Source of the DNA: Chiloscyllium plagiosum
Taxonomy: Eukaryota
NCBI RefSeq assembly: GCF_004010195.1
Contig: NC_057755.1
Location: 12,270,966-12,331,812 of the forward strand
Direction: 5' to 3'
Length of the DNA: 60,847 nt
Part shown: piece by piece, positions 1,949 to 59,755 of the stretch
Position numbering within the stretch: the first letter of the stretch is position 1
Layout: every line of letters begins with the position of its first letter
The notes under the pieces: model-generated
Told to the model about the DNA's origin: nothing
The model's database searches: none
Seen by the model: the letters and a program-made list of their open reading frames with translations, nothing else
Made by a program: the position numbers and the translations under genes

Positions 1949-2156
1949 TGAAAGTGAGGACTGCAAAGGAGATTAGAGTCAAGAGTGTGGCGCTGGAAAA
2001 GCGCAGCAAGTCAGGCAGCATCCGAGGAGCAGGAGAATCGATATTTCGGGCAAAAGTCCGAATGTTCCTGATGAAGGGCTTTTGCCCGAAACATCGACTC
2101 TTCTGCTCCTCGGATGCTGCGTGACCTGCTGTGTTTTTACAGAACTACACTCTCGG
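1949..2156. mobile_element. Fold-back PLE terminal-repeat insertion (family A)
   Basis: Inverted arms; CTGATGAAGGGC..GCCCGAAAC at 2068-2092; 17-bp TSD caagtaatc(c/t)acaggga (1932-1948 / 2157-2173). Confidence 0.85.
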
Positions 2157-2794
2157 CAAGTAATCTACAGGGACCATGACATTTTAGCAGCTTTTGAAAG
2201 AATAAAAGCCAAACTCAGTAATGGTGACTGTGAAACTCATCAATTGTCATCAAACGTCCTTCCTTCCTTTAGGGAAGGAAGTATGTCATAACCTCATTGA
2301 CTCCAAAGGGCAATTAGACAATTACTTCCTTCCTAGTGCCAGTCACATCACGTGAAAGAATTCAAAAACTGTAACTTTCGGCAGTAATAGCCAGGATGAC
2401 TGAATTGTAAATTCATTTCAAAAGGAAATTGGTGGAAGCTTCAGGAAAATTGATTTTCCAGGCCAGCAGAAATGAGGGAAGTATGTGACTGACTGGACAC
2501 CTACTGTACACCTGAAGCTGATATGAACTTGGGCTGAATGGCTTCCTATAATGCTGATAGTTTTGTTCAGAATGAAAGTCACACCAGCTATACGCTGTCC
2601 TGGCAAAACCACCACCACCCCTGGTAACCTGATCCAGCTCAATATGGAGGAACAATTTGTGCCTGATGCCCGAATGTGTCTAAATATAATTTTTATGTTC
2701 AATTTCTTTATGCTGTTAACTGACTTCATGGATTTAGCAACAAGTAGGGAAGACTGGCAAAATTCAGCAGATCTGGCAGCATATGTGGAGAGAA

Positions 2795-3565
2795 AGAAGT
2801 TGAATCTTAGCAGGACTGATGCACTTAATGATAAGCTCCTAGGCAGTGTTGCTGAACAGAGAGACCTTGGAGTGCAGGTCCATAGTTCCTTGAAAGTGGA
2901 GTTGCAATAGACAGGATAGTGAAGAAGGCATTTGGTATGCTTTCCTTTATTAGACAGAACATTTGAGTGTAGGAGTTGGGAGATCATATTACGGCTGTAC
3001 ATGACCTGGGTTAGGCCAGTTTTGGAATATTGTGCGCAGTTCTAATCTCCTTCCTGTTGGAAGAATGTTGTGAAGCTTGAAAGGGTTCAGAAAAGATTTA
3101 CAAGGATGTTGGCAGGATTGGAGGATTTGAGCTATAGAGAGAGGTTGAATAGGCTGGGGCTGTTTTCCCTGTAGCATCAGAGACTGAGGAATGTCTTTAT
3201 AGAGGTTTATAAAGATCATAAGGGGCATGGATAGGATAAATAGACAATCTTTTCCCTGGGGTGGGGGAGTTCAGAACTAGATGACAGAGGTTTGGGGTGA
3301 GAGGGGAAAGATATAATAGAGACCTAAGGGGCAATTGTTTTATGCAGTGGATGGTACATATATGGAATAAGCTGCCAGAGGAAGTGGTGGAGGCTAGTAC
3401 AATTGCAACATTTAAAAGGCATCTAGATGGGTATATGACTAGGAAGGGTTTGGAGGGATACGGACCACGTGCAGGCAGGTGGGACTAGATTGGGTTTGGA
3501 TATCTGGTCGGCATGGACGAGTTGGACCAAAGGGTCTGTTTCCATGCTGTACATCTCTATGACTC
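2795..3565 (+). mobile_element. CR1 LINE 3' fragment
   Basis: EQRDLGVQVHSSLKV, WNKLPEEVVEA, CR1-type 3' tail. Confidence 0.9.
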
Positions 3566-3847
3566 AATGCTCTGAAGAAAAGTTACACCAAACTCAATGT
3601 TAAATGTTTGTGTCCACAAAAGCAGCTAGACCAGCAGAGTTTCTACATTTATTTCAGATTTCCAGTATTTTCATTATTTTGTTTTTATCCATGAATTCAG
3701 AATTGGGGAAGGTCAGTGAAACTTGGTGACTGACTGGATTTCTCCGGTTAGCTCTGCCCATGAGAGTAAGTGGTTTTTGTTCCTGTTTCTGTCTCTAAGC
3801 AATATATCTGGGATGGATTTCAATGAGGCCTGGTCCACAAGTAGAGT

Positions 3848-4028
3848 CACAAAGTGTGATGCTGGAAAAGCACAGTTGACATTTCGAGATAAGCTCTTCA
3901 TCAGGAACATGAGCTTATGCTCAAAACGTTGATTCTCCTGTTCCTTGGATGCTGCCTGACAGGATGTGCTTTTCCAGCACCACACTTTGTGACTCTGATA
4001 TCCAGCATCTGCAGTCCTCACTTTCTCC
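3848..4028. mobile_element. Fold-back PLE insertion (family A, decayed)
   Basis: Inverted arms; TSD-like cctggt(cc)acaagtagagt on both sides. Confidence 0.75.
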
Positions 4029-4779
4029 TGGTACAAGTAGAGTTGGCCAAGGGAGGTGCTATTTACCTTTTAGTGAAGATGCTGATCCAGATCCTGGAAC
4101 TTTTAAAATATTGTCAATGTTGGAACAGATAGAACAAATTAACATTTTTTAAAGAATGTTATGGGGTGTTGTATTTAGAATGTTGACTTTTTTTAAAAAC
4201 GTCTTTATTCTTTCATGGGATATTGGCATCACTGGCAAGGTCAGCATTTTTGATCATACCTAAGTGAGTGACTTGCAAGGTCATTTCAGAGGTCTGTTAA
4301 GAGCCAACCACATTGCTGTGGGTCTGATACTATATGTAGGCCAGACCGGATAAGGAAGGCAGATTTCATTCCCTAAAAGTTATCAGTGGATCAGATAGGT
4401 TTTACAGCAATCATGGTTTCATGATAGTTTCATCGTCACCATGACTGAAATTAGCTTTCAGCTTTTATTGATTTGTATTGAAATTCTGCCAGCTGCTTTG
4501 GTGAGATTTGAACCCTTGTCCCTCAAGCATTAGCCAGTGGGCCTCTGGATTACTCATGCAGTGAAATTATTTTACCACAATGATAACTGTGATAATGATA
4601 TTTATTAATATCTATTGCTTGCGATAACTAGCACTTATTTATTGTGACATGTTTGTAGTGATAAGGTTTCAATGTGTGCTTGTTGGTATTTTGTTGAATG
4701 GTACTCTGATTCTTGGTCGTGGGAAATATGCACATCTCTCATCTCAATGTTACTAATACTCAAGTATATTTACTCCAAG

Positions 4780-4948
4780 GTACCCTGAGGCTAGAGCAAT
4801 TCAGAGAAAGATCATCTTTCATGCTGGGCCAACGAACAGCGGAAAAACGCATCATGCCATTCAAAGCTTCTTGGCAGCCAAGTCTGGAGTCTATTGTGGT
4901 CCTTTGAAACTGCTTGCACATGAGATCTATCAAAAGAGCAATGATGCT
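4780..4948 (+). CDS. SUPV3L1: SUPV3L1 exon 5, Walker A / motif I
   Basis: ccaag| ... |gtcagt. [56 protein letters not shown]; phase matches the previous exon. Confidence 0.96.
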
Positions 4949-7834: not shown

Positions 7835-8770
7835 AAGACGTAGGAGATGGAATGGACTGTTTGGCCTTTCAAGCCTGCTCCATCATTCAAGAAGATCTTG
7901 GCTGATCTGTTTGTGGTCTTAGCTCCATTTTCCTGTCTGCATCCCATTAATCCTTCAACTCGTCTAACAAAAATGTATCTAACTCAATCTTGAATAAGTA
8001 CCCAACCTCCACTTCCTTCTGTAGGAAAGAAAACCTGCACATTGACAACTCTGTGAAGAAAATAATTCTCTGATCACTGTCTTGAAAAAAAGGAAAACCT
8101 TGTTTTTAAACTGTGTCTCCTAGTTCTAGTCTCCCCCACTGGAGGAAGCATTCTCATTCAGTTCCCTCGAGCTTTGATATTTTTCAATAAAATCAACTCC
8201 TATTTCTCTAAACTCTAATTCGTATAGACCTAACCTGTTCAAACTTCATAGGTTAACCTTACATCCAAGGAATGAGGAGATGAAGGGCTTATGCCCAAAG
8301 GTTGATTCTCTTGCTCCTTGGATGCTGTCTGACCTGTTTTTCCAGTGCTACACTTGTCGATCCAAGGAATAAGTCGCATAGAATTTCTCTGAACTGCTTC
8401 TAAAGCAGTTATGTTTTTTTTTCAAATAAGGAGACCAAAATCATTCCAGTTTGTCCATTGCTTTGTACAGCTGTGGTAAAAGTTATCTGCTTTGATATTC
8501 ATTCCCCTTGGAATAAATGACCATTCCATTTGCTTTCATAATCACTAGCCGTATTTGCATGACAATATTGTGATTCATGAATTCCTAAATCCCACTTTAC
8601 CGTTGAATCCTGTATTCTCTCTTTATTTAAATAGAATGTTCTTAAATTTTCTGTTCTTCCAACCAAAATTGATAAGGTTACCCTCATTTTATTCCATTTC
8701 CTAATTCTTTGCCCACTCTCTTAATCTGTCCACGTCCTTTTGCTGACTGTCTATCTCCTCTTCAGATCTT
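7835..8770 (-). mobile_element. Old CR1 3' fragment
   Basis: Decayed RT C-terminus and 3' UTR on the minus strand. Confidence 0.75.
8274..8359 (+). mobile_element. Short PLE terminal-repeat insertion inside a CR1
   Basis: gatgaagggcttatgccc...; 11-bp TSD atccaaggaat (8263-8273 / 8360-8370). Confidence 0.75.
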
Positions 8771-11043: not shown

Positions 11044-11044
11044 C

Positions 11045-13091: not shown

Positions 13092-14278
13092 GTAAATAAC
13101 TTTTCAACTTTTTGTAATGTTACCAAGTATTAATATCTTGTGTGTTTGAATACTAAATAACAGTCACTGTTACTTAGCAACTGGCACCATTTCTCCATGT
13201 TCAGTGACATGGCCCAGGAACGTGACTTGGGCTTTTGCGAGCGCACGCTTTGCTCGGTTTATCACCAAGCCCGCATCCTGAAGTTGATTGACCAATTCTG
13301 ATAGATGCTACATATATTCCTTCCATGTGTGACTAAAAATCAACAGATTGTCTATATACACCACAATTGGGTTGTCCTGAAATGACTTTATTGATTAGTG
13401 TTTATACGTGGCTGGCACATGTTTCATATCAAATAGCATGACTTTAAAACTGTGCAGTCCATTCGGCATGAGCAAGTCCAACTTTGAAATATAAGTTGTT
13501 TTTCTCATCTTCTCAATGCAGTCTTCCAAATATGGGATAGAATGTCAATAAGATTTTGTAACTGCATTGACTTCGTGATAATACAGAGCTGAAAAATGTG
13601 TTGCTGGAAAAGTGTAGCTGGTCAGGCAGCATCAAAGGAGCATAAGCCTTTCTTCAGGAATGAGGAGGGTGTGCCAAGCAGGCTAAGATAAAAGGTAGGG
13701 AGGAGGGACTTGGGGGAGGGGCGTTGGGAATGCGATAGGTGGAAGGAGGTTAAGGTGAGGGTGATAGGCCGGAGAGGGGGTGGGGGCGGAGAGGTCAGGA
13801 AGAAGATTGCAGGTCAAGAAGGCGGTGCTGAGTCCGAGGGTTGGGACTGAGATAAGATGGGGGAGGGGAAATGAGAATGCATTCATCCCTTGTGATTGGA
13901 GGGTTCCTAGGCGGAAGATGAGGCGCTTTTCCTCCAGGTGTCGTGTTGCCATGGTCTGACGATGGAGGAGGCCAAGGACCTGTATGTCCTTGGCGGAGGG
14001 GGAGTTGAAGTGTTCAGCCACGGGGTGGTTGGATTGGTTTGTGTGGGTGTCCCAGAGGTGTTCTCTGAAACGTTCCGCAAGTAGGCGGCCTGTCTCTCCA
14101 ATGTATAGGAGGACACATCGGGTGCAGCGGATGCAGTAAATGATGTGAGTGGAGGTGCAGGTGAATTTGTGATGGATATGGAAGGATCTCTTGGGGCCTT
14201 GGAGGGAAGTAAGGGGGGGAGGTGTAGGCGCAAGTTTTGCATTTCTTGCGGTTGCAGGGGAAGGTGCCGGGAGTGGAG

Positions 14279-14702
14279 NNNNNNNNNNNNNNNNNNNNNN
14301 NNNNNNNNNNNNNNNNNNNNNNNNNNNNNNNNNNNNNNNNNNNNNNNNNNNNNNNNNNNNNNNNNNNNNNNNNNNNNNNNNNNNNNNNNNNNNNNNNNNN
14401 NNNNNNNNNNNNNNNNNNNNNNNNNNNNNNNNNNNNNNNNNNNNNNNNNNNNNNNNNNNNNNNNNNNNNNNNNNNNNNNNNNNNNNNNNNNNNNNNNNNN
14501 NNNNNNNNNNNNNNNNNNNNNNNNNNNNNNNNNNNNNNNNNNNNNNNNNNNNNNNNNNNNNNNNNNNNNNNNNNNNNNNNNNNNNNNNNNNNNNNNNNNN
14601 NNNNNNNNNNNNNNNNNNNNNNNNNNNNNNNNNNNNNNNNNNNNNNNNNNNNNNNNNNNNNNNNNNNNNNNNNNNNNNNNNNNNNNNNNNNNNNNNNNNN
14701 NN
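14279..14702. other. Assembly gap (other gaps at 54325-54923 and 57372-57605)
   Basis: Runs of N; all three lie in or next to PLE copies. Confidence 0.99.
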
Positions 14703-14755
14703 CAAGTCCCTCCTCCCTACCTTTTATCTTAGCCTGCTTGGCACACCCTCCTCAT

Positions 14756-14788
14756 TTCTGAAGAAGGGCTTATGCCCGAAACGTCGAT
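14756..14788 (+). ncRNA. Hammerhead core, sense to SUPV3L1 intron 9
   Basis: TT-CTGAAGA-A-GGGC(ttat)GCCC-GAA-ACGT-C-GA; core intact, stem I only about 2 bp. Confidence 0.6.
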
Positions 14789-16544
14789 TCTCCTGCTCCT
14801 TGGATGCTGCCTGACCTGCTGCGCTTTTCCAGCAACACCTTTTTCAGCTCTGATCTCCAGCATCTGCAGTCCTCACTTTCTCCTCGTGATAATACACACA
14901 ATTATTGGGTACAATTTGATTTTGGCACCATTACTATGGGTGAGGTCCATTCACTGCAACTCGCTTTGATTATATTTTCTTTGAGCATACGTTCAATCTC
15001 TTTTAGAACCTTTCCAATGTTAGACGATTACGTCGCTAAGGATGTTGCTTAATTGGAACAGCATTTCTTATATCTACATTATGCATAGTCAGATTAGTAC
15101 TTCCCAGCTTATTCACCATTTAATTGTAGTAACTCTTCCAGATCATTTTAGTTTTCCTCTGGAAGGTAACTCAATAATTTATCCCAATTTTTGAGAACTT
15201 TCTCATTGTCCAATTTACATTGAGGAATGTCCAATTTAGAATCATCTGAACTCGGTTCTTCACTGTTGTAACCAGTAACATATTCCCCTTTTGCTTTCCT
15301 TCCCTATCAAAATATCTTTTCAGCATATTCACATGACACACTGAGATTTAATTTTATCTGGTGTTCTTATCAAGTTGTTCAACTCATTCAATTTCCTTTT
15401 GATTTGATAAGGCCCCCGAAATCTTGCCTTCTAAGGTTCACTTACCACTGGTAGTAACACTAACGCTATCACCACTAGCAAAATTGCAAATTTTTGCTTT
15501 CTTATCTGCTTCCTATTTCATCATATGCTGTGCTACTTTTAAATGCTGTCTAACCAACTCACCCTCTCTACTTAAACTTTCCACTTAATTGTTCCCTAAA
15601 ATTTGACGTACAGTCCAAATGTGTGCTCTATAACTCTGAATCACCAATTTCTTCTTAATTAATCTCAATAATACTCTCATCTCATGCTCAAAAACTAATT
15701 TAAATGGACTGAATTTAGTTGACTCATCAGGTGCATCCCTAACTGCAAAAAAATACAAATGCAATTCCTTTCTCCCAATCATCTGGATAGTGTTGACTAT
15801 AAGCCCTCGACGTGGTCTTCAAAGTTTGGTGTCACTGTTTAATGCTTCCGGCCCAGTGAATTTGAATTGTTTATTTTCTAAGCTATCCATAACTCCCTTG
15901 AATAATTTTGATTGTAAAATTTGACCTTTGGTCCAATTGTACTCCTGAGGTAGTCCGTATCTAGTAAAAGAAATTGAGTAACTCTTCTACAATCCTTTTA
16001 GTCATGATACTGTGTAATGGAATGGTCTCTGGAAATCTAGTAAACACATCCATTATGGTTATTAAATACTGATTCCCACATTTTATTTTTGAGAGGGATC
16101 CTATGCAATCAAATATGACTCTTGTGTGAGGTTCCCAAAATGCAGGAATGGGTACTAAGTGTGCTGGTTTTATCACTGTCTGAGGTTTTCCAATTACCTG
16201 ATATTTATGACATGTCTGGCAAAATTCAATTGCATCCTAATGCAGTCCAGGACAATAAAAATGTTTTTGTACTTTGGCTTGAGTTTTCCTTACTCTTAGA
16301 TGACCACCTACTAGTAATTCATGTGCTACCTGCAACACCTCCTTTCTATAACTTACCAGTCATACAACTTGATCACCTTTTACCCATTTGTCATCTGCCT
16401 GAATATGTGATGGTCTCCATTTCCTCCTTAGAATAACTTGGATTTATAACATCTGTCAAGACTGCAATTTTGAAAGTAGGAAATACTGCATTGAATTCAG
16501 TGCAGCAAACTGCCACAATAAAATAAATGTTATCAAAAGTCATG

Positions 16545-21724: not shown

Positions 21725-22820
21725 TAGAGCATAGGGACTAGGAGCAGGAGTAGACCTTCAAGCCTGCTCTGCCATTCGATAAGATCATGGTTGATCTTTT
21801 CGCAGACTCGGCTCCACTTACCCACCCTCTCACTGTATCCCTTAATTCCTTTATTGTTTAAAAAAAAATCTACCTTTGTTTTAACAACGTTCACTGAAGT
21901 AGCGTCAACTACTTCATTGGGCAGGGAATTCCATAGATTTACAGCCCTCTAGATAAAGAAGTTCTTTCTCAATTCCGTCCGAAATCTGCTCCCCCTAATT
22001 TTGAGGCTATGACCTCTTATCCTAGTTTCACCTACCAGGGTGGAAACATCCTCTCTACGTCGATCTTAACTGTTCCGTTCATAATTGTATATATTTCTAT
22101 AAGGTACACCCCCCTCCCATTCTTCTAAATTCCAATGAATATAATCCCAGTCTACTCAGTCTCTCCTCATAAGCCAATCCCCTCAACTCTGGAATCTAGC
22201 TAGTGATCCTCCTCTGCACTTTCTTCTAGTGCCAGTACATCCTTTCTGAAGTAAGGAGACCAAAACTGCACGCAGTACTCCAGGTGTGGCTTCACCAGCA
22301 GCCTGTACAGCTGCAACATAACCTCCCTGCTTTTAAACTCAATTCCTTTAGCAATGAAGGATAAAATTCCACTTGCCTTCCTAATTGTTGTACTTGCAGA
22401 CCAACCCACTGTGATTTTTGCACAAGGACACCCAGGTCCCTCTGCATAACAGCACGCTGCAACCTTTTACTGTTAAAGTAATAATCCTTTTTACTGTACA
22501 AGATATTGAGAAACATAGAGTGGATAGCCAGAGACTTCTTCCCCGTGGCGGAAATGGGGCATAAGTTTAAGGTGATTGGAGGAAGGTTTAGGGGAGATGT
22601 CAGAGGTAGGTTCTTTACCCAGAGAGTGGTGGGTGCGTGGAATGCACTGCCAGCAGTGATACCAGAGTCAGATACATTAGGGACATTTAAGCGACTCTTG
22701 GATAGGCACATGGAAGTTTGTACAATGTAGGTATGTAGGTTAGTTTGATCTTAGAGTAGAATGAAAGGCCGGCACAACGTCAAGGGCTGAAGGGCCTTTA
22801 CTGTGCTGTACTGTTCTATG
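21725..22820. mobile_element. Two CR1 3' fragments back to back (21725-22500 minus; 22500-22820 plus)
   Basis: KPHLEYCVQFWSPY on minus; FFTQRVVGAWNALP on plus. Confidence 0.88.
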
Positions 22821-37177: not shown

Positions 37178-37502
37178 ATCTCATACCCTGTTTTTGCTGT
37201 TCTGATTTCCCTCTTAAATGGGTTCTGACACTTTTTATAGTCATCTGTAGATTCGCTTAAACCCAATGTATGCCTTCTTCCCTGTTTTCTTTGTATTCCT
37301 CAGGCCCTGTCAAATTTTAGCTTCCCAAACATTCCATATGCTTCCTTATATTTTTGTTTTTATTAAGTTCACAACCTCCCTCATCATCTAAGGGTCCCTT
37401 ACCTTACCAGGAGAAAGTGAGGTCTGCAGATGCTGGAGATCAAAGTTGAAACTTTATTGCTGGAACAGCACAGCAGGTCAGGCAGCATCCAGGGAACAGG
37501 AG

Positions 37503-37538
37503 ATTCGACGTTTCGGGCACAGGCCCTTCTTCAGGAAT
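37503..37538 (-). ncRNA. Minimal hammerhead ribozyme motif, minus-strand twin of 37754-37789
   Basis: Reverse complement is identical to the + strand motif. Confidence 0.8.
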
Positions 37539-37753
37539 GAGCAGAGAGTGTTCAGCAGGAGAAGATAAAAGGTAGGGAGGAGGGACTTGGAGGAGGGGAG
37601 TTGGAAATGTCTTCTTCTTGACCTCTCCGCCTCCACCCTACTCCGACCTATCACCCTCACCTTGACCTCTTTCCACCTATCACATTTCCAACGCCCCTCC
37701 TCCAAGTCCCTCCTCCCTACCTTTTATCTTCTCCTGCTGAACACTCTCTGCTC

Positions 37754-37789
37754 ATTCCTGAAGAAGGGCCTGTGCCCGAAACGTCGAAT
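37754..37789 (+). ncRNA. Minimal hammerhead ribozyme motif in a PLE terminal repeat
   Basis: ATTC-CTGAAGA-A-GGGC(ctgt)GCCC-GAA-ACGT-C-GAAT: 4-bp stem I, conserved core, 4-bp stem II, palindromic ACGU stem III, GUC cleavage triplet. Confidence 0.8.
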
Positions 37790-39257: not shown

Positions 39258-39605
39258 GAATGTGTTGCTGGAAAAGCGCAGCAGGTCAGGCAGCATCCAG
39301 GGAACAGGAGAATCGACGTTTCGGGCATAAACCCTTCTTCAGGAATGAGGAAAGTTTGTCCAGCAGGCTAAGATAAAAGGTAGGGAGGAGGGACTTGGGG
39401 GAGGGGCGTCGGAAATGTGATAGGTGGAAAGAGGTCAAGGTGAGGGTGATAGGCCAGACTGGGGTGGGGGCGGAGAGGTCGGGAAGAAGATTGCAGGTTA
39501 GGAAGGCGGTGCTGAGTTCGATGGATTTGACTGAGACAAGGTGGGAGGAGGGGAAATGAAATTTTCAGCTCTGATCTCCAGCATCTGCAGACCTCACTTT
39601 CTCCT
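39258..39605 (-). mobile_element. Neptune-type terminal repeat with a short inverted tail
   Basis: Similar to 13590-13870; inverted tail at 39562-39605; no clear TSD. Confidence 0.8.
39313..39344 (-). ncRNA. Hammerhead core in a Neptune-like terminal repeat
   Basis: Reverse complement: TC-CTGAAGA-A-GGGT(ttat)GCCC-GAA-ACGT-C-GA. Confidence 0.6.
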
Positions 39606-41204
39606 AGCCATAGTGAAGCCACACAGTGTCTAACTCAATGACTCGTCTCTGGTAAATACGAACGTTGTTGATCTCCTCTTGTGTTGAAATCAGAAACAGA
39701 CATGAAGGTGACAATTGGAAGCCACCCACCCTGCACTGAGACTGAAGCCAGCCGTGAGGGGCCGTGCCCGAAACGTCGAATCTCCTGTTCCCTGGATGCT
39801 GCCTGACCTGCTGTGCTGTTCCAGCAATAAAGTTTCAACCCTTACCTTACCACCCTTGTCCTTTCTTTTTACTGGACTCTCATCCTGAACTCTCATCAAT
39901 AGACCTTTAAACAATGACCACATGTCAAATGTAGATTTGCCTGATAACAGTTGATCCCAATTAACTCTCCCTAGCTCCTTCCTAATACAGTTGTAATTTG
40001 TCCTGCCCCAATTTTGTACTTTCCCACAAGGACCAGATTTATCTTTATTCATAGCCATTTTAAAACAACAATCACTGTGCATCACAAAATGCTATCCCAC
40101 TGTCAAGTCAGTTACCTGTCCTCTAGTTGACGTATCCAAATACTGTTTCAAGAAATTCTCTTGGATGTGCCTAACAAATTGTCTTGTCTAAGCCTCTTGC
40201 TGTAAAGAAGTTCCAGTCCACATTGGGGACGTTGAGTGTAGCAACTTTGATTTTTATTGTATCTTTCCATAATGTGCCTACATGCCTGTTCTTCAATGTC
40301 CCTGTCTCTGCTGAGGGGCCGATCATATAATCCCATTAGAGTGTTTGCATCTCTAATTTTTGAACTCCTCCCATATTGCCTCAGTGGATGAAACCTGCAG
40401 CATGTCCTCTCTGACTATAGTTGTGACATTCTCTCTGATCAGTAACTCCTCCATTTCTTTTACCTCCTTCTCTATCTCATCTAAAACGTCTAAACCCTGG
40501 AATGTTGAGCAGCCAGTCCTGCTCCGTTGCCAACTAGGTCGTTGTAATGGCCACAACATCATAGTCCCATGTACTGATTCCAGCATTAAGCCCATCTGCC
40601 TTACCCATAATATTCCTTGCATTGAAATAAACACACCTGCTCATCAGTCCTATCATGTACCTGGCCCTGTCTGTCTTTCCTTTCAGACTTGCTGTTATGC
40701 TTTTTTAAAATCAGTTTGTTCAAAGTCCAGCTAGAAAGGAGGATGTAGTGTTGGGAAATTAACTGGACCAAGTACCTGTGGGGAACAGATGGGAATAGTG
40801 ATCACATGATAAGATTTGATTCACAACAGAAGAGAGCAAGGGGCAATCTAAATCAAACTTTCTAAACTGGAAGACACTAATTTTGAGGAGATGGCAGGAG
40901 ACCAAGTCAGAGTAAAACAGGTTTGTGGGAAAAACTAAGAATATTGGACAATCTTTAAGAAGATAATGTTTTGAGTATGGGCTGGGTACATTTAAATAAG
41001 ACCAGACTGGGGAACCAAAGTCAGCTCTTTGGATGACAAGAGGAGACTTTGAATATGATGAAACAAAAAGAGGACATCTGATAGAGGTCAGGTGTAATTT
41101 TCAATTGGGATGCAGATCAAATATGATAAATTGAGAAGGGAAGTGAAGAGGAAAATCAGACTGACAATATATGAGAATAGAAAAGCAGTTGATGTAACAG
41201 AGAA

Positions 41205-41430
41205 GGAGAAAGTGAGGACTGCAGATGCTGGAGATCAGAGCTGAAAATGTGTTGCTGGAAAAGCATCTCCTCCACTTCCCGCTCCTCCGCCCTTGAGCCC
41301 CGCCCCTCCAACCGCCACCAGGACAGAACCCCACTGGTCCTCACCTACCACCCCATAAGCCCGAAACATCGATTCTCCTGTTCCTTGGATGCTGCCTGAC
41401 CTGCTGCGCATTTCCAGCAACACATTTTCA
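41205..41430. mobile_element. Fold-back PLE insertion with an internal ORF scrap (…RTPLVLTYHP)
   Basis: Inverted arms; 14-bp TSD gatgtaa(c/a)agagaa (41191-41204 / 41431-41444). Confidence 0.85.
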
Positions 41431-43933
41431 GATGTAAAAGAGAACTCAAACATTGGCATGATTTATAGTGGCCATTGAGATGGAGTGGAACCTATTAGGG
41501 AAGTTAAGGTGACGTGTGCTAAGAGACTCAGGGGAAGTCTGGAATAATGAGTAAGTTCTTTGTATCAGTATTTACTAACGAAAAGGAGCATGGCAAAATA
41601 TTAGAAGTGGAGATGGTGCAGTTATTTTGAAAGGCAGGGTGCCCTAGAAAGTCTAGCTACACTTGGAGTGGATAAATTGACAGCTTCTAACTACTAAAGG
41701 AAGTGGGCATGGACATAGCAGGGCATCTTACCATAATGTTTCAAGTTTCCCTCAATAAATATCAAACAATTGGAGAGCAGTAAGTTGACACCTTCAGAAG
41801 TGGGTACAGAATCAATCCTAATAAATAGAGGCCAGTTCATTTAATATCTGTTGTAGGTAAGGTTTTAAAATAATAGAGGGAAATAACACTAACAGCTGTT
41901 TGTAGTAATGTGCAAACTCCACACAGACTGTTGCCTGAGGCTGGAATCGAATTTGGGACCCTGATGCTGTGAGGCAGCAGTGCTAACCACAGCCACCATA
42001 CCAGGGTGTTAATTAATTAACTATCCTGACTAGCCTTCTGGGAGCACATCCAAAACTTTATTGCCAAATTAGCTCTCTCTAATTCAGATTCCCCAATCAA
42101 TCTCAAGCTAATTGCCTTACACTGGCTCCTGGTCCAGAAACATCAGATTATATGCATTAAAATTAATAATCAAATGCTTCCATGATCTTGTCAATCCCAT
42201 TCAACATTAGCTCCTATATTGCCACAACTATCGCTGCTATCAGCACTCTTCCAGTTCTGGCCACTGGCCTATGTCTTGTTAATGTCATACTTGGCAAATT
42301 TTGAAATTTTACTCTGTATTCCCATATACATTATGTAACAAAAGTGACAGTGACTCTTGGGACATACACTGTCCATCATCCTCCAGTCTCAAAAGCAACT
42401 ATTTACAATCAATCAGTTTTGTTTTGTCCTTATGCCAATTTTTTTAATCCAAGTTGACCCTCCCATCTCGTAAGCTTCAAATTTATTAACCAGATTTTGA
42501 TGTGCTACTTTATAAAATATGTTTATATCCACATAGACAACATCCACTGCATTTCCTTCACCAAATTGCTGTTGCTTGATCAAAAGTATCACATTCAAAA
42601 GTCAATTCATGAATGTGTTCCACTTCTTACAAATCTTCAAAGGGTTTGGTTAACTGCCAAGCTTTGTTTAAATTTAAATCGGGCAAGTTGGTCTAAGAAA
42701 TAAACCAGAGAATAAAACCATCACTTGTTTGATTGGAACACGTGCAGTAGATGATCGTAGGATATAGAAGCAAGGGTAGGCTATTCAGTCCACTGGGTCT
42801 GCTCTGCCAAATCATGGTGGGTGTGACAATAATACCGAACTCTACCTTCCTGCCTTTTCCCCATAACCTTTGATTTTCTTACTGGTCAAAAAGATGTCTT
42901 TCTTGGCCTTGAATATACTAATAACTAACGTCCCATTTTTTTCTCTCCTGGTGCAAACCTCCTAGAGCTCAATGCTGTGTTCTGGGTCAGCACGGTCGAT
43001 CACTGTGTGTGAAATTGCAGAGTGGCACATGAGCCAACTGCTAAAGCCCTCTGTGCTTTTAAACCAAATGCACAGATTCATTGCCTTTTGAGAGAACAAA
43101 TTTCTCCTCACCGCTATTCCAACTGGGCAGCCCAATATTCTGAGAATATGTTTTCTGGCATAAGATTCTCTCACAAGGGAACACAACCTCTTGGTACCTA
43201 CACTGTCAAGTCTTAAAATAGTCTTGTATATTTAAATAAGTTGCCTCTCATTATTCTAAATTTCAATGTATATAGGCCCATCAATTCTCCTGGGACATCA
43301 GTTTCTACCACACAAACTCCTGTTTAATCTCATCAGGCACCTGTTCATTATTAAGGTGTATTTTGTTGTACTTTTGCTAGCTTGTCTATCTTCGTCACAT
43401 CAACCTGGGGATGCATGGTGCTGGACTAGCAACCCAAAGTATGAAATAATTAACACCAATTTCAAAAGTGAAATCCTTGCTAATCTCATTTTGAGGAGGT
43501 AACTGTGAGAGTAAAGACACCACAGTCTTACTAGACCATAGGGTTACTCTCTCATTATAGAGAGAGTTGATTTGTGCTGGGTTAATCTGAGGATCAGGTG
43601 ATGGGAGAGGTTGGGAGGGCAAGTCCTTCATAGTAACTTCAACTGATGCAGGAATTGCACCCACATTGTTGGCATCCCTCTGTAGCACAAGTCAGCATTC
43701 AAGCTGAGTGAGTGGATAATGAAAATTCAGCAGATGTAATTGTCTGCAGTTTCTGAGTGTTCTGTAGTACATTAACAAATTAGGTCAGAGAATGTGGAAT
43801 CATGGACAATTGGAAGAACAGACTGTGAGCTGGCTGCACTACAAAAGTGTCCAACCTGCCTTGATCCCAGCCCCAACCCTACCCTCATATTTATCTCTCA
43901 GCCTCCTTCCTCCATCACATTCCTGATGAAGGG

Positions 43934-44965
43934 CTTATGACCAAAACGTCGACTCTCCTGCTCCTCGGGTGCTGCTTGTGTTTAATTCAATGCTATCTAC
44001 TAAGAGATCAAGACAGAAACTGCTGCCAGGCCAAACAGACAGCAGCTTGTCAATTCCTGACCTGTACTGAGACCAATGAATGTGGTGAAAATAGGCCAAG
44101 ATGTTCCATGTAGTTTGTGCATCCAGGGCTAAAGGATGGGTATTACACAACTGAGAATTGTGCTATAGATCACCTCTGTGGCCCAAGGTAGAAAGAGGGA
44201 ATGTGAAACGTTCTTATTCAAGTTTTCTTGTGCCTCGTCAAACAGCTAGCCAGTGCTGAAAAGTCTCCTCCTCGGGGAGAACGAGGACACCTGAACCAAT
44301 ACAACTATCTCTGTCAGGGGAGAGGGAGAAAGTGCACCAGTGTAAAGATGATGAGATACACGGACTGTAAATGCATGTCCGTCCCACAGTCAGTCTCTGT
44401 GTTATTCTGTGGAGGGGATTTTAGTAATGAAGCCCAATTCTGAGCTGTGGAACACAGTGAATCGAGCACATCAAATATGACTGCAATTATCACATCACAA
44501 TGGCTGAGTGACTCATCAGCTGCTTCTAGCTCCAGGAGTTTGGTGGAGGCGGAGTGCGTAGTGAGGATTGGGAATTGTCAATGAAGGAGAAAACCAACGG
44601 ACAGTTCCAGACTGGAGTTCAGATGGTCATCCAGGCTTTCTCCTGATTAAAACCTCTCCTTCCTGTCCTGCTGTTGTTCGCATGCAATTACTACAGAATG
44701 GTAAGAGCAGTGTTTACAATCAATGAGTTGATCAAAACTGGCTGATATGCTTGAACAGGAGGATGTGCTGAAAATTTTGAAAAAATAAGGATACTGGGCC
44801 TATTTTCACCACATTCATTGGTCTCAGTACAGGTGAGGAATTGTATTTAGAAGCTGCTGTCTGCTTGGCCTGGCAGCAGTTTCTATCTTGATCTCTTAGT
44901 AGATAGCATTGAATTAAACACAAGCAGCACCCGAGGAGCAGGAGAGTCGACGTTTTGGTCATAAG
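43934..44965. repeat. ~165-bp inverted duplication (43934-44097 / 44797-44965) with a 700-bp spacer
   Basis: Arms are reverse complements with a few mismatches and one small indel. Confidence 0.9.
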
Positions 44966-46485
44966 GGCCAGGTTATCCCCTGGCCCACAAGGTTACTCCG
45001 GGAAGCAAGGGAAGAGATTGCTGTGACTTTGGCGATGATCTTTGCAGCCTCACTGTCCACTGGAGAGTGGCAAACTTTATTCACTTGTTCAAGAAAGAGA
45101 ATAGGGATAACCCTGAGAATTACAGACCAGCCTGTCTTACATCTGTGGTGGCCAAATTATTGGAGAGAATTCTGAGAGACAGGATTTATGATTATCTGGA
45201 AAAGCATTGTTTGATTTGCGATAGTCAGCATAGCCTTGTGAGAGGAACACCATGCCTCACAGGCCTTATTGAATTCTTTGAGGATGTGACAAAATATTTT
45301 ATGAAGGTAGAGCTGTGGATGGATTTTAGGAAGGCACTTGACAAGGTTCCTCATGATAGCTCCTTCAGAAAGTAAGGAGGCATGGGATACAGCAAAATTT
45401 GCCTGTCAGGATACAGAATTGGCTGGACCATAGAAGACAGAGGGTGGTAGTAAGTGGAAAGTACTCCGCCTGGAGCTTGGTGACTAGTGGTGTTCCACAG
45501 GGATCTGTTTTGGGACCTCTGTTCTTTGTGATTTTTATCACTTCCTCCTTGGATGAGGAAGTGGAAGGGTGGTTAGTAAGTTTACCAATGACATGAAGGT
45601 TAATAGAGTGGTGGATAGTGTGGAAGGCTGTTGTAGGTTGCAACAGGACATTGACAGGTTGCAGAACTGGGCCAATAAATGGCAGATGGAGTTCAACCTA
45701 GAAAAGTGTGAAGTGATTCATTTTGGAGGTCAAATTTGAATGCAGATTACAGTGTTAAAGGCAGGATGCTTGGGACTGTGAAGAAACAGAGGGATCTTGG
45801 GGTCCATGTCCGTAGTTCCCTCAAAATTGCCACCCAAGTTGATAGAATTGTTAAGTAGGTATATGGTTGTTGGCTTTCATTAGCAGGGGTATTGAGTTTC
45901 AGAGCTGCGAGGTTGTTCTGCAGCTGTTATAGAGCCCTGGTTAGACCACACTTGGAATACTGTGTTCAGTTCTGGTCATCTCATTATAGGAAAGATGTGG
46001 AAGCTTTAGAGAAAGTGCAGAGGAGATTTACCAGGATGTTGCCTGGACTGGAGGGAAAGTGTTATGAAGTAAGGTTGAGGGAGCTAGGGCTTTCCTCATT
46101 GGAGAGAAGAAGGATGAGAGGTGACTTGGTAGAGGTGTACAAGATGATGAGAGGCATAGACAGAGTGGATAGCCAGAGACATTTTTCCCCGGATGGAAAT
46201 GGCTATCATGAGGGGTCATAATTTTAAAGTGATTGGAGGAAGGTTTAGGGGAGATGTCAGAGGTACGTTCTTTACACAGAGTGATGGGTGTGTGGAATGC
46301 ACTGCTAGTGGTGGTAGCAGAGTCAGATACATTAAGAACATTTTTAGCAACTCTTGGATAGGCAAATAGAAAATAGTACAATGCAGGATACGTAAGTTAA
46401 TGTGACTTTAGAGTAGGATAAAAGGTTGCCACAACATCAAGGGCTGAAGGGCTTGCACTGTGTTTTACTATCCTACGTTCTATAT
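44966..46485 (+). mobile_element. 5'-truncated CR1
   Basis: [40 protein letters not shown], 3' tail. Confidence 0.92.
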
Positions 46486-46874: not shown

Positions 46875-47050
46875 GGAGAAAGTGAGGTCTGCAGATGCTG
46901 GAGATCAGAGCTGAAAATGTGTTGCTGGAAAAGCGCAGCAGGTCAGGCAGCATCCAGGGAACAGGAGAATCGACGTTTCGGGCATAAGCCCGATTCTCCT
47001 GTTCCCTGGATGCTGCCTGACCTGCGCTTTTCCAGCAACACATTTTCAGC
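46875..47050. mobile_element. Young fold-back PLE insertion (family A)
   Basis: Near-perfect inverted arms; TSD tgcttgtattagaa(gg) (46861-46876 / 47051-47066). Confidence 0.9.
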
Positions 47051-47411
47051 TGCTTGTATTAGAAGGTGCCTCCTGAATGTTGTTGGAGCTGCACTCATCC
47101 AGGCAAGTGCCATCACACGCCTCACTTGTGCCTTGTAGATCGTGGACAACCTTTGAGGAGTCAGAAAATGAATTACTTGCCATAGAATCCTCATAGGCCC
47201 AGTGTCTATATGGCTGGTCCAGTTCAGTTTCTGTTCAATTGGAACAAGACATTGATTCTCAGCACACAGACACCACCATCACCATTCCTGGAGATTGTTG
47301 TGTGCCACTGTTGACCTCTGATCTTGCAGGCACTGTGTTTATGTGGCTAATCCAGTTCAGTTTCTGATAACCCCCAGAATGTTAATAGTAGGGCATTCAG
47401 TGATAGTAATA

Positions 47412-47932: not shown

Positions 47933-48024
47933 AATGATTCGGAGATGCCGGCGTTGGACTGGGGTGTACAAAGCTAAGAATCAGACAACACCAGGTTAAA
48001 GTCCAACAGGTTTAATTGGAAGCA

Positions 48025-48059
48025 CACTAGCTTTCGGAGCGACACTCCTTCATCAGGTG
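48025..48059 (-). ncRNA. Minimal hammerhead ribozyme motif, second family (AGCU stem III, CUA site)
   Basis: Reverse complement: CAC-CTGATGA-A-GGAG(tgtcg)CTCC-GAA-AGCT-A-GTG. Confidence 0.8.
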
Positions 48060-48111
48060 ATTGTGGAGGGCTCGATCGTAAATTCTGTGTTACGATCGAG
48101 CCCTCCACAAT

Positions 48112-48146
48112 CACCTGATGAAGGAGCGTCACTCCGAAAGCTGGTG
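48112..48146 (+). ncRNA. Hammerhead motif with a cleavage-site substitution (CUG instead of CUA)
   Basis: CAC-CTGATGA-A-GGAG(cgtca)CTCC-GAA-AGCT-G-GTG; G at position 17 violates the NUH rule. Confidence 0.7.
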
Positions 48147-48928
48147 TGCTTCCAATTAAACCTGTTGGACTTCAACCTGGTGTTGTCTGATTTTTAACTT
48201 TCTTATCGAAGAATGATAACTACATTCTCTTTTTTTGAAGATTATGATCAATTGGCACTTCATAACATTTGGGCTATTTTTTATTGGTGATGGTCAATAC
48301 CTGGCATTGTGTGGTGTGACTGTTAATTGTTATTTTTCAGCCTAGACCTGGACATTGTCCAGATCTATTTGCATCTTACACAGACTGCTTCAGTATCAGA
48401 GGAGCCGTACTCCTTGATGCCACACTCAGCCTTGATGTCTAGCAGCACTCTCCTTCCCTCTGGAATTCTGCTCTTTTGTCCATGTTTGAACCAAGGCTGT
48501 AATGAGATCAGGAGCTGAGCGGCTCTGTTAGAACCCAAACTGGGCATCACTGAGCAGTGTATTGCTGAACAGGTGCTGTTTGATAGCACTGTGGATGATA
48601 CTTTACTGATGATTGAGAGTAGACTGATGAGGTTGAAATTGTCCTGCTTTTCATGTACAGGACATAACTTGGGCAATTTTCCACATGGTTGCATAGATGT
48701 CAGTGTTGGAACTGTACTGGAACAGCTTAACTAGGGGAGCAACAAGTTCTGGAGGTCAAGTCTTTACTATTACCAGAATGTTGTCAGGATACATGGAGTG
48801 GATCGAATTGGCTGAAGCTTGGTATCTGTAATGCTGGGGATCACTGGAGGAGGCCACAGTGGATTATTCACTCGGCACTTCTGACTTAAGGTTGTTGTGA
48901 ATGCTTCAGCCTTACCTTTTACACTGAT

Positions 48929-49057
48929 AGGAGAAAGTGAGGACTGCAGATGCTGGAGATCAGAGTTGAGAATGTGGTGCTGGAAAAGCACAGCCAGTCA
49001 GGCAGTATCCAAGGAGCAGGAGAATCGACGTTTTGGGCATAAGCCCTTCATCGGGAA
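48929..49057 (-). mobile_element. Single-arm PLE terminal repeat starting at the HHR 5' edge
   Basis: 13-bp TSD ctttta(c/a)actgat (48916-48928 / 49058-49070). Confidence 0.85.
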
Positions 49058-53039: not shown

Positions 53040-54320
53040 GTAGAGCATAGAACATTACAGCACAGTACAGGCCTTTGGCCCACGATGTTGTACCAACCAG
53101 TGAAATTAATCTGATGCCCATCTAACCTACACCATTCCATTATTATCCATATGTATGTCCAATGCCTACTTAAATGCCCTTAACAACGGGGAGTCTACTA
53201 CTGTTGCAGGAAGTGTGTTCCATGCCCCTACTACTCTCTGAGTAAAGAAACTATCCCTAATATCTGTCCCATGTCTATCATCCCTCAATTTAGAGCTGTG
53301 TCTCCTCGTGTTAGCTTCACCATCCGAGGAAAAAGACTCTCACTGTCCACTCTATCTAACCCTCTGATTATCCTACATGTCTTGATTAAGTCACCTCTCA
53401 ACCTTTTTCTCTCTAACGAAAAGAGCCTCAGTTCCCTCAGCCTCTCTTCGTAAGACCTTCCCTCCATACCAGGCAACATCCTTGTAAATCTCCTCTGAAC
53501 CCTTTCCAAGACTTCCAGATCTTTCCTATAATGTGGTGACCAGAACTGTACACAATACTTCAGGTGAGGCCTTACCAGTGTCTTGTACAGCTGAAGCATG
53601 ACCTTGTGGCTCCAAAACTCAATCCCCCTATCAATAAGCACCAGCACACCATATGCTTTCTTAACAACTCTATTAATCTGGGTGGCAACTTTCAGGGATT
53701 TATGCACCTGGATACCAAGATCTTTCTGTTCATCGAAACTGCCAAGAATTTTACCATTAGCCCAGTACTCTGCATATGATAGCACTGGAGAGAAATTCAG
53801 AGGAGATTTACCAGAATGTTATCAGGCCTGGATAGTTTGTCATGAGGATGAAGTTGTTTCTCTTGGAGCAGAGGAGACCGAAGGGATCATGTTTGAGATG
53901 TATAAAATAGTGAGGAGTAGACAAAGGGAAACGTTGCTCCCTGGTAGAAGGATCAATGACTGGGGGTATAGATTTAGGGAGGTTTAGATGGGATGTGAGA
54001 ACATAGAACATAGAACAATACAGCACAGAACAGGCCCTTCGGCCCACGATGTTGTGCCGAACATTTGTCCTAGCTTAAGCACCCATCCATGTACCTCTCC
54101 AATTGCCGCTTAAAGGTCACCAATGATTTTGACTCTGCCACTCCCACAGGCAGCGCGTTCCATGCCCCCACCACTCTCTGGGTAAAGAACCCACCCCTGA
54201 CATCTCCCCTATACCTTCCACCCTTCACCTTAAATTTATGTCCCCTTGTAACACTCTGTTGTACCCATGGAAAAAAAGTTTCTGACTGTCTACTCTATCT
54301 ATTCCTCTGATCATCTTAAA
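53040..54320 (-). mobile_element. Cluster of CR1 3' fragments (53040-53775 minus, 53785-54000 plus, 54000-54320 minus)
   Basis: RPHLKYCVQFWSPHYRKD...; (agaacat)n tails. Confidence 0.88.
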
Positions 54321-54924: not shown

Positions 54925-55310
54925 TAGCCCTACACACGGATGAAAGAAACCATCAATTTGACTGGGACAACGCATCTATCCTGGGACAGGCTAAGCAAAG
55001 TCATGCCAGAGAATTCCTAGAGGCCTGGCACTCCAACCACAACACCATAAACAAACACATAGATCTAGATACCATCTATCAACCCCTCAGAAAACGAACA
55101 GGAAATGACATCAACACAAACCCCAGGAACCCCATCCAGGAGAAAGATATAAATAGAAAGCAGGAGACAACAGCTTCGCTTCACTTGGAGGTCGCCACTG
55201 ATGATGTTACCTAGCCAGGTAATGAAACGTCTGGATATCAAACCTACAGCTCAGCGAGCAAACCTACACTCTAAACCTCAACCTGAACTACAAACCTTCA
55301 CAAACCTTGC
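54925..55310 (+). mobile_element. Poseidon-type PLE 3' end (GIY-YIG C-terminus + HHR repeat)
   Basis: HTDERNHQFDWDNASILGQAKQSHAREFLEAWHS..INKHIDL followed by the HHR. Confidence 0.85.
55195..55234 (+). ncRNA. Minimal hammerhead ribozyme motif in the 3' repeat of a Poseidon/Penelope-type element
   Basis: CCA-CTGATGA-T-GTTACCT(agcc)AGGTAAT-GAA-ACGT-C-TGG: 3-bp stem I, 7-bp stem II, GUC site. Confidence 0.82.
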
Positions 55311-57180: not shown

Positions 57181-58065
57181 CTTCAAAGTTTGTGAGAAGA
57201 TTTGTAGCTCGGGTGCTCGTTGTTGTGGTTCTATTCGCCGAGCTGGGAATTTGTGTTTCGTCCCCTGTCTAGGTGACATCCTCAGTGCTTGGGAGCCTCC
57301 TGTGAAGCGCTTCTGTGATGTTTCCTCCGGCATTTATAGTGGTCTGTCCCTGCCGCTTCCGGTTGTCAGTTNNNNNNNNNNNNNNNNNNNNNNNNNNNNN
57401 NNNNNNNNNNNNNNNNNNNNNNNNNNNNNNNNNNNNNNNNNNNNNNNNNNNNNNNNNNNNNNNNNNNNNNNNNNNNNNNNNNNNNNNNNNNNNNNNNNNN
57501 NNNNNNNNNNNNNNNNNNNNNNNNNNNNNNNNNNNNNNNNNNNNNNNNNNNNNNNNNNNNNNNNNNNNNNNNNNNNNNNNNNNNNNNNNNNNNNNNNNNN
57601 NNNNNNGTTTTTGGCGAATACATTGTATAGGTGTTCCTCTTCCTCTTTTTGCAGTTCTGGTGTACTGCAGTGTGTTGTGGCCCTTTTGAACAGTGTCTTG
57701 ATGCAACTTCTTTTGTGTGTGTTGGGGTGGTTGCTTTCGTAGTTCAGGACTTGATCTGTGTGTGTGGCTTTCCTGTATACCTTTGTGGTGAGTTCTCCGT
57801 ACCATCATGTCAAGGAATGGGAGTTGGTTGTCCTTTTCTTCCATTCTAGTGAATCGGATTCCTGTGAGTGTGGCGTTGATGATCTGGTGTGTGTTCTCTA
57901 TTTCTGTGTTTTTAATGATTACAAAGGTGTCATCCACATATCTGACCCAGAGTTTGGGTTGAATTTGTGGTAAGGCTGTTTGTTCTAATCTTTGCATTCC
58001 CACTTCTGCTATGAGTCCAGAGATGGGTGAACCCAGGGGTGTGCCGTTGATTTGTTCGTATATTT
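57181..58065 (-). mobile_element. Poseidon-type PLE remnant with RT catalytic motif; spans an N-gap
   Basis: GTPLGSPISGLIAEVGMQRLEQ...PKLWVRYVDDTFVII...LPFLDM. HHR core at 57255-57288 (-) lacks the cleavage triplet. Confidence 0.88.
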
Positions 58066-58067
58066 GG

Positions 58068-58320
58068 TTGTTAGCACTGCTGCCTCACAGTGCCAGAGAC
58101 CCGGGTTCAGTCTGCGTGGGTCCCCTCCGGGTGCTCTGGTCTCCTCCCACAATCACAAAGATGTGCAGGTTAGGTGAATTGGCCATGTTAAATTGCCCGT
58201 AGTGTTAGGTGAAGAGGTAAATGTAGGGGAATGGGTCTGGGTGGGTTACTGTTCGGAGGGTGGTTGTGGATTTGTTGGGCTGAAGGGCCTGTTTCCACAC
58301 TGTAAGTAATCTAATCTAAA
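58068..58320 (+). mobile_element. HE1-like V-SINE with an internal deletion
   Basis: ttagcactgctgcctcacag...gtaatctaatctaa. Confidence 0.82.
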
Positions 58321-58360
58321 ACTCCAAAGAAACATGAGAACTGAGTCTCTGAGGAGAGAG

Positions 58361-58441
58361 CTGAAAATGTGTCGCTGGAAAAGCGCTCCAGCAACACATT
58401 TTCAGCTCTGATCTCCAGCATCTGCAGTCCTCACTTTCTCC
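58361..58441. mobile_element. Miniature fold-back PLE insertion
   Basis: Inverted arms; TSD tctctgaggagagag (58346-58360 / 58442-58456). Confidence 0.85.
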
Positions 58442-58639
58442 TCTCTGAGGAGAGAGTTGGCTCCCTGAGATACCCAATAAATCAGACCAAACTATCAGAT
58501 TTCAGTAATGCAGAAATCCATGTTCTGAAATCCCTTATACTTAGAAACTGCTGACTGCCCACAACTATCAATCGCTCCTCAATTTCCAGTTCCCCATTAC
58601 CAGACTCTTGCCTGATGCTTGTACAATCTCTGACCACTT

Positions 58640-58947
58640 CATCCCTCCCTCCTATTTGAGTAAATTCATTCCCACTGACACCCCACGCCCACTCCCGAGC
58701 CAAAACTTTGCTTCGTTTTGAACAAATGTTATGGTTTGTGCAGTGTGTCCCTTTGTTGATGCTGAGAGTTCTCACTGATGACTGCAGAGGGCAGAACTAG
58801 GCTTAGAGCTCAATGAAGCAAGTTTAATGGGACTGTATATCTTGGTATCTCAGAAACTCCTGTGAAATTGATTGAATTAAGTTGACTGACGTTCTGAAAA
58901 CATTTCTTTTCCCCCTCAGAACTGAAGAGGCCGAAACACTTTGCAAA
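58640..58947 (+). promoter_or_regulatory. Non-repetitive region upstream of the HKDC1 ATG: possible proximal promoter and/or 3' splice site
   Basis: CCACGCCC (SP/KLF-type box) at 58683-58690; ctgac + pyrimidine tract + cag ending at 58919. Confidence 0.35.
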
Positions 58948-59010
58948 ATGTTTGCAGTACACCTTTTGGCTTTTTATTTGTCGAAAATACGTGATGATCA
59001 GGCGATAAAG
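58948..59010 (+). CDS. HKDC1: HKDC1 (hexokinase domain-containing 1) first coding exon
   Basis: aaaATG ... aag|gtaagg; 63 nt, MFAVHLLAFYLSKIRDDQAIK vs recalled human HKDC1 N-terminus MFAVHLMAFYFSKLKEDQIKK. HKDC1 follows SUPV3L1 on the same strand in human. Confidence 0.88.
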
Positions 59011-59201
59011 GTAAGGGAGATATGAAGAGGTCAGGTGGTTTTATTTGCTCTAAAAGATGTAGGTGACACGGGAAAGAGTTATTTATTGCTGAATTACCCT
59101 AAGATGTTGGAGGTGCTGAGTGTGAGTAGATTCCAAGCCCACTTGATGAGATTATAACCAGGACACAAATACCTTTTTACTTTGAAGAGGGAGTTCTTAA
59201 A

Positions 59202-59755
59202 CACTGCTGCTTCACAGCACCAAGGACCTGGGTTCAATTCCACCCTCAGCTGACTGTGGAATTTGCACATTCTCTCCCGTTTTGGTGTGGGTTTCCTCCG
59301 GGAGTTCTGGTTTCCTCCCAAAGTCCAAAGAGGGGTAGATTAGTAGGACGACCATGCTAAATTGACCATACTAGACAAGCAGGAGGCTGGAAGAACACAG
59401 CGAGCCAGGCAGCATCAGGAGGTGAAGTCAATGGATTGGGTGTAATTCTTCTTCAGGGCCTGAAGAAGGGTTCATTCGAAACGTTGACTTCTCCACTTCC
59501 TGATGCTGCTTGGCTTGCTGTGTTCTTCCAGCCTCCTGCTTGATGACCTTGGATTCCGACATCTGAAGTTTTTTTTGTCTGTGAAATTGCCCATAGTGTC
59601 CATGGATGTGCAGTCTAGGTGGATTGGCCATAGATAATGCAGGATTACGGGGATAGACTGGGGAGGTGGGTCTGGGTGGAATGCTCTTCAGAGGGTCAGT
59701 GTGGATTCAACAGACCTAATGGCCTGCTTCTACATTGGAAGGATTCTATGATTCA
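59202..59755 (+). mobile_element. HE1-like SINE interrupted by a PLE palindrome
   Basis: Head at 59202, resumes after 59584. Confidence 0.78.
59371..59583. mobile_element. Fold-back PLE insertion (related subfamily) inside a SINE, in HKDC1 intron 1
   Basis: Pivot cttcttcagg-g-cctgaagaag; TSD aaattg(a/c)ccata (59359-59370 / 59584-59595). Confidence 0.8.

Follow-up and report, generated by a model that had tools for sequence, protein, structure and literature searches.

The genome of the shark Chiloscyllium plagiosum contains short palindromic inserts derived from Penelope-like elements (PLEs), and a stretch of 60,847 nucleotides (nt) of it (contig NC_057755.1, positions 12,270,966 to 12,331,812), referred to at its full length as the window, raises the question of why so many arms of these palindromes end at a hammerhead ribozyme motif and how one insert acquires two arms. 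According to the earlier note on this DNA, ribozyme cleavage or structure sets the end of the RNA template and primes snap-back synthesis. The 12 inserts named there all exist, each with a target site duplication (TSD) call of 8-18 nt and with ends, mapped here in reference sequences, close to those described; they are PLE palindromes made by a retro mechanism, and the clustering of arm ends at the hammerhead in the two families to which most belong, called A and B hereafter, is real and non-random. Cleavage-primed snap-back, on the other hand, is not supported. The inserts are probably one-tailed PLE 3' ends for which both nicked strands of the target primed synthesis on one uncleaved RNA, with run-off at the transcription start site and joining of the two products by microhomology.

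Positions within an element are counted from the first base of the hammerhead core, i.e. the C of the CUGA core (or the corresponding base of UUGA) is position 0. On this scale, the predicted cut lies between +27 and +28 in family A, before +29 in family B, before +31 in family G and before +34 in families C and D. Palindromes in the window were detected by self-comparison, while frequencies were estimated from a random sample of the 3.56-Gb genome, namely 160 stretches of 10 kb from contigs C1-C21, placed at round coordinates and totalling 1.546 Mb once N is left out, and all figures for family A refer to this sample only. Searching with five references of family A gave 418 matches in sample and window, from which 43 were dropped as a sister family and 31 because they ended before +55; the 344 left became 352 with the partner arms added. 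End statistics were computed on the 265 arms from outside the window whose 3' end was clean and whose identity reached 85% or more; gaps, edges or the length of the reference censored 42 of them. The sets for B, C and D each consist of the 30 best among 40 scored matches to a 3'-terminal query of 62-66 nt and include the window's own copy, and the set for G comprises 39 places; these four sets were selected by the 3' end alone, and G ends were scored against a genomic reference.

In family A, arm ends form a wall at the upstream edge of the hammerhead, with peaks at -4 and -3 (18 ends each) and 41/223 ends at -5 to -3. Expressed as a rate, 55 ends in 575 nt at risk at -5 to -1 correspond to 0.096 per nt, about 30-fold over the background of 0.003-0.004 per nt at +32 to +90 and -14 to -145 (p=8e-43); the rate decays downstream of the wall (0.024 at 0 to +11) and drops upstream of it. 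The earlier note had placed the pivots inside the motif: a concentration far beyond chance is indeed found, with 150 of the 265 arms at -13 to +31, but the mode is the upstream edge and neither the interior nor the cut. Single arms have the same modal end as pairs, so that a hairpin is not required for the wall.

Family B has its modal end at -8, with 23/43 ends at -12 to -3 and 12/43 at -10 to -7, and 5/43 at the edge of stem I (-4 to -2); its TATA box starts at -38 or -40, and 31 B arms of the random sample agree. For family G, where the TATA box is at -35, a wall at -5 to -3 was predicted before the copies were collected, about five having been seen: 18 of the 59 ends fall exactly at -4, 33 within -6 to -1 and two beyond -8, some being uncertain by up to 4 nt because the word at -4 to -1 is self-complementary. 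In B and G, the wall is an A preceded by a pyrimidine, 30-32 nt downstream of a canonical TATA box; in family A, it is the A of TCATTC, which we take to be an initiator-like word, about 31-33 nt below a TATA-like box of degenerate sequence (TTTATC, about -35 to -37). In families C and D, the hammerhead motifs are intact but there is no pile-up, only 2/30 tail arms in each ending at -13 to +35 vs. 84/128 in A and 19/30 in B (p=2e-16 and 2e-8); the hammerhead alone therefore does not set the pivot. We infer that the wall marks the 5' end of the RNA.

Regarding the two arms, 84 head-to-head pairs of family A were found outside the window (54 per Mb), most inserts measuring about 130 nt per arm. 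A tail of 30-40 nt is present on exactly one arm in 74 of them, on both arms in 2 and on neither in 8, and the tailless arm mostly stops 31-42 nt short of the full 3' end. TSDs measure 9-28 nt in the 51 clean pairs. One-tailed pairs also occur in B, C, D and G (7/30 each in C and D). This is the architecture described for endonuclease-bearing PLEs, i.e. an inverted 5'-truncated copy set head to head, with a tail of 30-40 nt at one end and the whole unit within a TSD (PMC3846280, PMC8557442). At two places of the sample (L079:1606-1900 and L162:4871-5230), head-to-head arms stand 150-250 nt apart with unrelated DNA between them, possibly captured between two cDNAs.

The two arms of a pair come from one source. 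In family A, they share 62 derived differences vs. a mean of 15 under permutation, their diagnostic calls are concordant in 45/47 cases vs. 26 expected, and 49/51 pairs belong to a single subfamily. Their ends, by contrast, are uncorrelated (rho 0.04), the tailless arm reaching further upstream in 31/51 pairs and the tail arm in 18, with 2 ties. The junctions are flush or overlapping in 23/51 pairs, 13 of these 23 showing microhomology of at least 2 nt vs. 16% expected, and contain spacers of 1-14 nt in the other 28. The shared variants, the uncorrelated ends and the types of junction together fit two first-strand cDNAs made on one RNA and united by end-joining repair. In such a sequence of events, both nicked target strands would prime cDNA on one uncleaved RNA, one arm starting at each of the two reverse transcriptase (RT) start sites that flank the tail, probably on the same RNA molecule; the second RT may displace the first cDNA, the cDNAs would run off at the transcription start just upstream of the hammerhead, and their two ends would be joined by microhomology repair. 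The short template could be a promoter-to-tail transcript or, alternatively, the 5' end of a longer mRNA on which synthesis starts internally.

Several points weigh against this scenario, most of them bearing on the putative start site. A cap-derived extra G is seen in 10/44 cases of family A vs. 12.3 expected, which is not significant, and in 8/17 vs. 16/56 when pooled (p=0.13, the B and G cases being read by eye). In A and G, stem I begins at -4 as well, which leaves B as the only family to tell promoter from structure, and in one variant of B a bulged stem could extend to -7. The box of family A is degenerate, the TATA boxes of C and D (at -53 and -50) have no pile-up 30 nt below them, and the Drosophila virilis promoter is TATA-less and located further upstream, before an intron (PMC2377424). 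As to the arms, the variants that they share are also compatible with snap-back, with two RNAs of a single locus or with gene conversion, and the polarity of the pairs could be mimicked, in old copies, if palindrome centres were later lost by asymmetric deletion. Expression data do not bear on the matter: single-cell polyA reads (run X19) on one A and one G copy lie on both strands with no place where many start or end, and 91-99% of them continue into unlike sequence, thus behaving like host transcripts carrying copies and being uninformative on the start site; in run X20, no reads were placed on the A or G copy.

The inserts of the window against which these alternatives can be read, together with the related copies, are listed below, the strand being given where one is assigned.

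1949-2156: head-to-head insert of family A (subfamily S3) with a 17-nt TSD, its tail arm reaching +8 and its tailless arm beginning at -3.
3848-4030: family A insert, tailless left arm to -3 with an internal deletion, tail arm from +10, 11-nt TSD.
8274-8359, plus strand: family A single tailless arm starting at +2, with TSD.
13586-14885: long family A pair, additional to the inserts named earlier, with a GIY-YIG endonuclease remnant (13686-14276, minus strand) and an assembly gap inside.
24555-25537, minus strand: long family A copy with an endonuclease-like frame and a 3' untranslated region with a TATA-like box, hammerhead core at 24640.
26220-26787: old family-B-like palindrome with long arms, centre near 26538, far upstream of the hammerhead, 12-nt TSD.
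29440-29584: family B insert whose tailless arm extends to +23 and whose tail arm begins at +33 (cut at +29).
37410-39838: single insert made of a 2.35-kb copy of a young multi-copy unit and a short tailless S1 arm (39757-39838) from +7.
37410-37858 and 39259-39605: inherited palindromes within the preceding insert.
41205-41431: family A insert, tail arm to +65, 90-nt spacer of element interior, tailless arm from +13.
46875-47051: family A (S2) insert with a 1-nt overlap, its tail arm reaching +8 and its tailless arm beginning at +27/+28.
47935-48201: family B insert, arms to -25 and -36, hammerhead cores at 48056 (minus) and 48115 (plus).
48929-49057, minus strand: family A single tail arm starting at -3, with TSD.
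55148-55310, plus strand: pseudo-long terminal repeat (pLTR) of the control family D, with a tail, a TATA box and a hammerhead core at 55198.
57183-57340, minus strand: family C pLTR that has a tail, a TATA box and a hammerhead core at 57285, with an RT remnant upstream (57608-58084).
58361-58443: very short family A pair with ends at +63 and +70, downstream of the hammerhead.
59372-59582: pair from a subfamily sister to A, with the ends of both arms at about -1 as read from the sequence.

Concerning the wall, the end could be set by the folded hammerhead itself or by a bound protein, in which case RT or a 5' exonuclease working on a longer RNA would be halted at stem I's upstream edge, with the arms then joined as proposed above. 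The coincidence of -4 with the start of the 4-bp stem I is exact in A and G, so that the part of the earlier proposal in which structure sets the end keeps some ground; no promoter activity would be needed, and C and D, which have a longer stem II and different cores, lack a pile-up despite their TATA boxes. We nevertheless regard it as rather unlikely, as the wall of B is at -8 yet its stem I starts at -3, RT would presumably reach stem I from its 3' side first, and the motifs fold no better than shuffled sequences (z from -0.65 to 0.51 for hammerhead monomers). That ribozyme cleavage makes the template's 5' end is very improbable and could at most apply to a small minority of arms. The second arm of the insert at 46875 does begin at the base after the GUC, as had been described, and 8/223 ends of family A lie at 27-29, five of them exactly at +28, which exceeds the flanks (p=0.0095); these are however few beside the ends at the wall, and the corresponding counts are 0/43 in B (28-30) and 0/59 in G (29-33). 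Besides, 7 of the 8 ends are in old subfamilies, the young ones giving 1 in 100 arms (p=0.56), the bump adjoins two decaying CpGs, no ends are called at 24-26 and a window of 24-31 gives p=0.09, while among the junctions at 27-31 three were joined at stem-I microhomology and one reflects an internal deletion. Published in vitro products moreover derive from uncleaved RNA (PMC11167929). Cleavage does not set the main wall.

As for the arms, self-priming on an antisense template was proposed in 2013 (PMC3846280), and would amount here to a snap-back in which one cDNA reaches the RNA end, folds and copies itself, the hairpin centre being later altered by asymmetric deletion. It accounts for variants common to both arms, and the few recurrent junctions (-3/+2 four times and -1/+9 three times in the 51 pairs) use short microhomologies of hairpin type; these are nonetheless found in both polarities and in several subfamilies. 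Since the copy is limited to the first cDNA and the sense-strand tail cannot be copied from sense RNA, snap-back predicts a longer tail arm. The tail arm is indeed longer by more than 5 nt in 15/51 pairs of family A and 2/17 of family B, but it is shorter by more than 5 nt in 21/51 and 7/17, respectively. Self-copying also leaves unexplained why the second arm halts at the tail base, a known RT start site, and it has to contend with the spacers at more than half of the junctions and with the same wall in single arms; as a general route, snap-back therefore appears distinctly unlikely. A further possibility, that palindromes of the kind of miniature inverted-repeat transposable elements (MITEs) or short interspersed nuclear elements act as masters copied whole, junction included, has one clear instance. 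The insert at 37410 contains a young non-autonomous unit of at least 2.35 kb (window 37410-39756; also L320-L323 and L150:9760-10000), composed of an S1 pLTR palindrome, about 1.4 kb of non-coding DNA and a nested S2 palindrome; at least 40 places match it at 100% (181-237 candidates), which may include assembly collapse or gap filling, and 3/4 fetched copies have the same inner junction. The palindrome at 37410 had been listed as an exception to the pivot rule, and its arm ends do lie elsewhere (-76 and -149), but the insert extends to 39838, its TSD partner standing at 39839 instead of at the end of the local palindrome; what belongs to this site is only the 82-nt arm at 39757, joined to the 2.35-kb arm, and the palindrome is inherited, which accounts for this exception and shows that a few junctions are inherited. 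MITEs have a fixed interior and a short fixed TSD, whereas 44/51 junctions of family A were seen once, the other 7 falling into the two microhomology classes above, and TSDs are long and variable; master copying is thus disfavoured as a general route and very improbable as the explanation of these palindromes at large. The priming of both target strands on one uncleaved RNA remains the reading that we retain.

The hammerhead motifs, which were recognised by their core, stem I and stem II, are predicted to be of the minimal type I, with a CUGAnGA (or UUGACAA) core, stem II, GAAA, a palindromic stem III, NUH and a stem I of 3-4 bp; an Rfam scan of the window returned no hammerhead at E<=1, only spurious miRNA-hairpin matches. 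Family G has the U3-A8 core variant in addition to its canonical TATA box; where its stem I starts, there is a pyrimidine tract with an AG (L104:4790-4956; L281-L319), which recalls the D. virilis intron end at helix I. Downstream of the hammerhead, A and G share a conserved stretch (e.g. 37795-37835) with a branch-point-like CTGAC/CAGAC, a pyrimidine run and a CAG before the tail base, resembling a 3' splice site. A 3' splice site was rejected as the origin of the wall, as G ends include the AG at -4/-3 and the AG sites of A near -25 show no pile-up. The endonuclease remnant of family A matches the Pfam GIY-YIG domain at E=5e-4 (20.7 bits, below the cut-off of 22.6), a relative stands upstream of G in L104, and D is preceded by GIY-YIG-like text; upstream of the B copies examined, neither an endonuclease nor an RT was found. 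The remnant of family C matches RVT_1 (E=7e-7), and no RT linked to A, B or G was found. One frame of the broken family A endonuclease contains a CX4CxxC string, the Neptune clade having a CX2-5CxxC linker before the endonuclease (PMC8557442). By appearance, A and G are Neptune-like, while C and D resemble the Anolis Poseidon element PAc, their reading frame opening at stem II.

PAc is the PLE for which the reaction has been followed in vitro: each of the two target strands receives a nick and is extended, RT initiates at two sites that flank the tail, a dimer is predicted, hammerhead mutants leave the product unchanged and no RNA-seq ends were found at the cut (PMC11167929). The two 3' ends of the pairs described here match these two RT start sites, and the PAc-like families C and D are those devoid of a pile-up; the accessible text of the PAc study contains no account of inverted inserts and no mapping of genomic 5' ends. 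Metazoan PLE hammerheads were reported as type I minimal motifs with a palindromic stem III and a U3-A8 variant, occurring as solo copies and as pairs on opposite strands 100-700 bp apart (PMC4209133), all of which features recur here (the U3-A8 core in family G), although the cleavage and circular RNA proposed there as template route are at odds with ends that avoid the cut. Junction palindromes and other DNA captured between pLTRs are likewise shared with published PLE inserts (PMC3846280, PMC8557442), from which the present ones differ by their size of about 130 nt per arm, their density of about 54 pairs per Mb and ends at one family-specific position. They also resemble non-long-terminal-repeat retrozymes in being non-autonomous, PLE-derived and endowed with a type I hammerhead; these retrozymes are tandem direct repeats of cleavage-bounded monomers, in contrast to the dispersed single or inverted stubs seen here, which start upstream of the core and avoid the cut (bioRxiv 10.64898/2026.07.22.740005).

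Architecture, tail, minimal hammerheads and opposite-strand pairs are thus already published. What is added here is the TATA register in three families, the two negative-control families and the tests of polarity and arm concordance. LINE-1 twin priming uses two primers from the two target strands and results in a 5' inversion with a microhomology join, the arms copying non-overlapping parts of the RNA; unlike this, both arms here copy the same stretch, hence the palindrome. In the literature searched, subscription papers and supplement figures lying outside the search, there was neither a mapping of PLE 5' ends to a TATA-spaced start nor a twin-priming account of the one-tailed inversion.

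On the origin of PLE inverted one-tailed inserts and on the role of their hammerheads, this genome offers a very large natural record of the PLE reaction. This record argues for uncleaved RNA as template, in agreement with the sole in vitro study. It also makes predictions, exact to the base, about the 5' end of the RNA and about two-strand priming, both open to direct test in the existing in vitro system and by cap analysis of gene expression. More tentatively, it is conceivable, if somewhat doubtful, that PLE integration is normally a double first-strand event in which a dimer primes both strands on one RNA from the two sites beside the tail; the second cDNA would then be what is seen as an inverted pLTR with a single tail. 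On this view, transcripts of Neptune-like shark families would start on the first hammerhead bases, the ribozyme would serve to decap the RNA and not to release it, and cap-adjacent internal initiation would have made on the order of 10^5 hairpin stubs, in which the start site is recorded base by base.

Some other observations in the window deserve mention. The spacer of the insert at 41205 (41266-41355) comes from the interior of family A and has 12 further matches in the sample, which suggests a template jump. At 43866-44965, the last part of a family A copy plus about 120 nt of non-PLE sequence is repeated tail to tail, opposite to the usual orientation. Many RT fragments of another retroelement, presumably CR1-like, are scattered at 2418-3041, 22292-22750, 44965-46396, 53285-53818 and 60122-60814.

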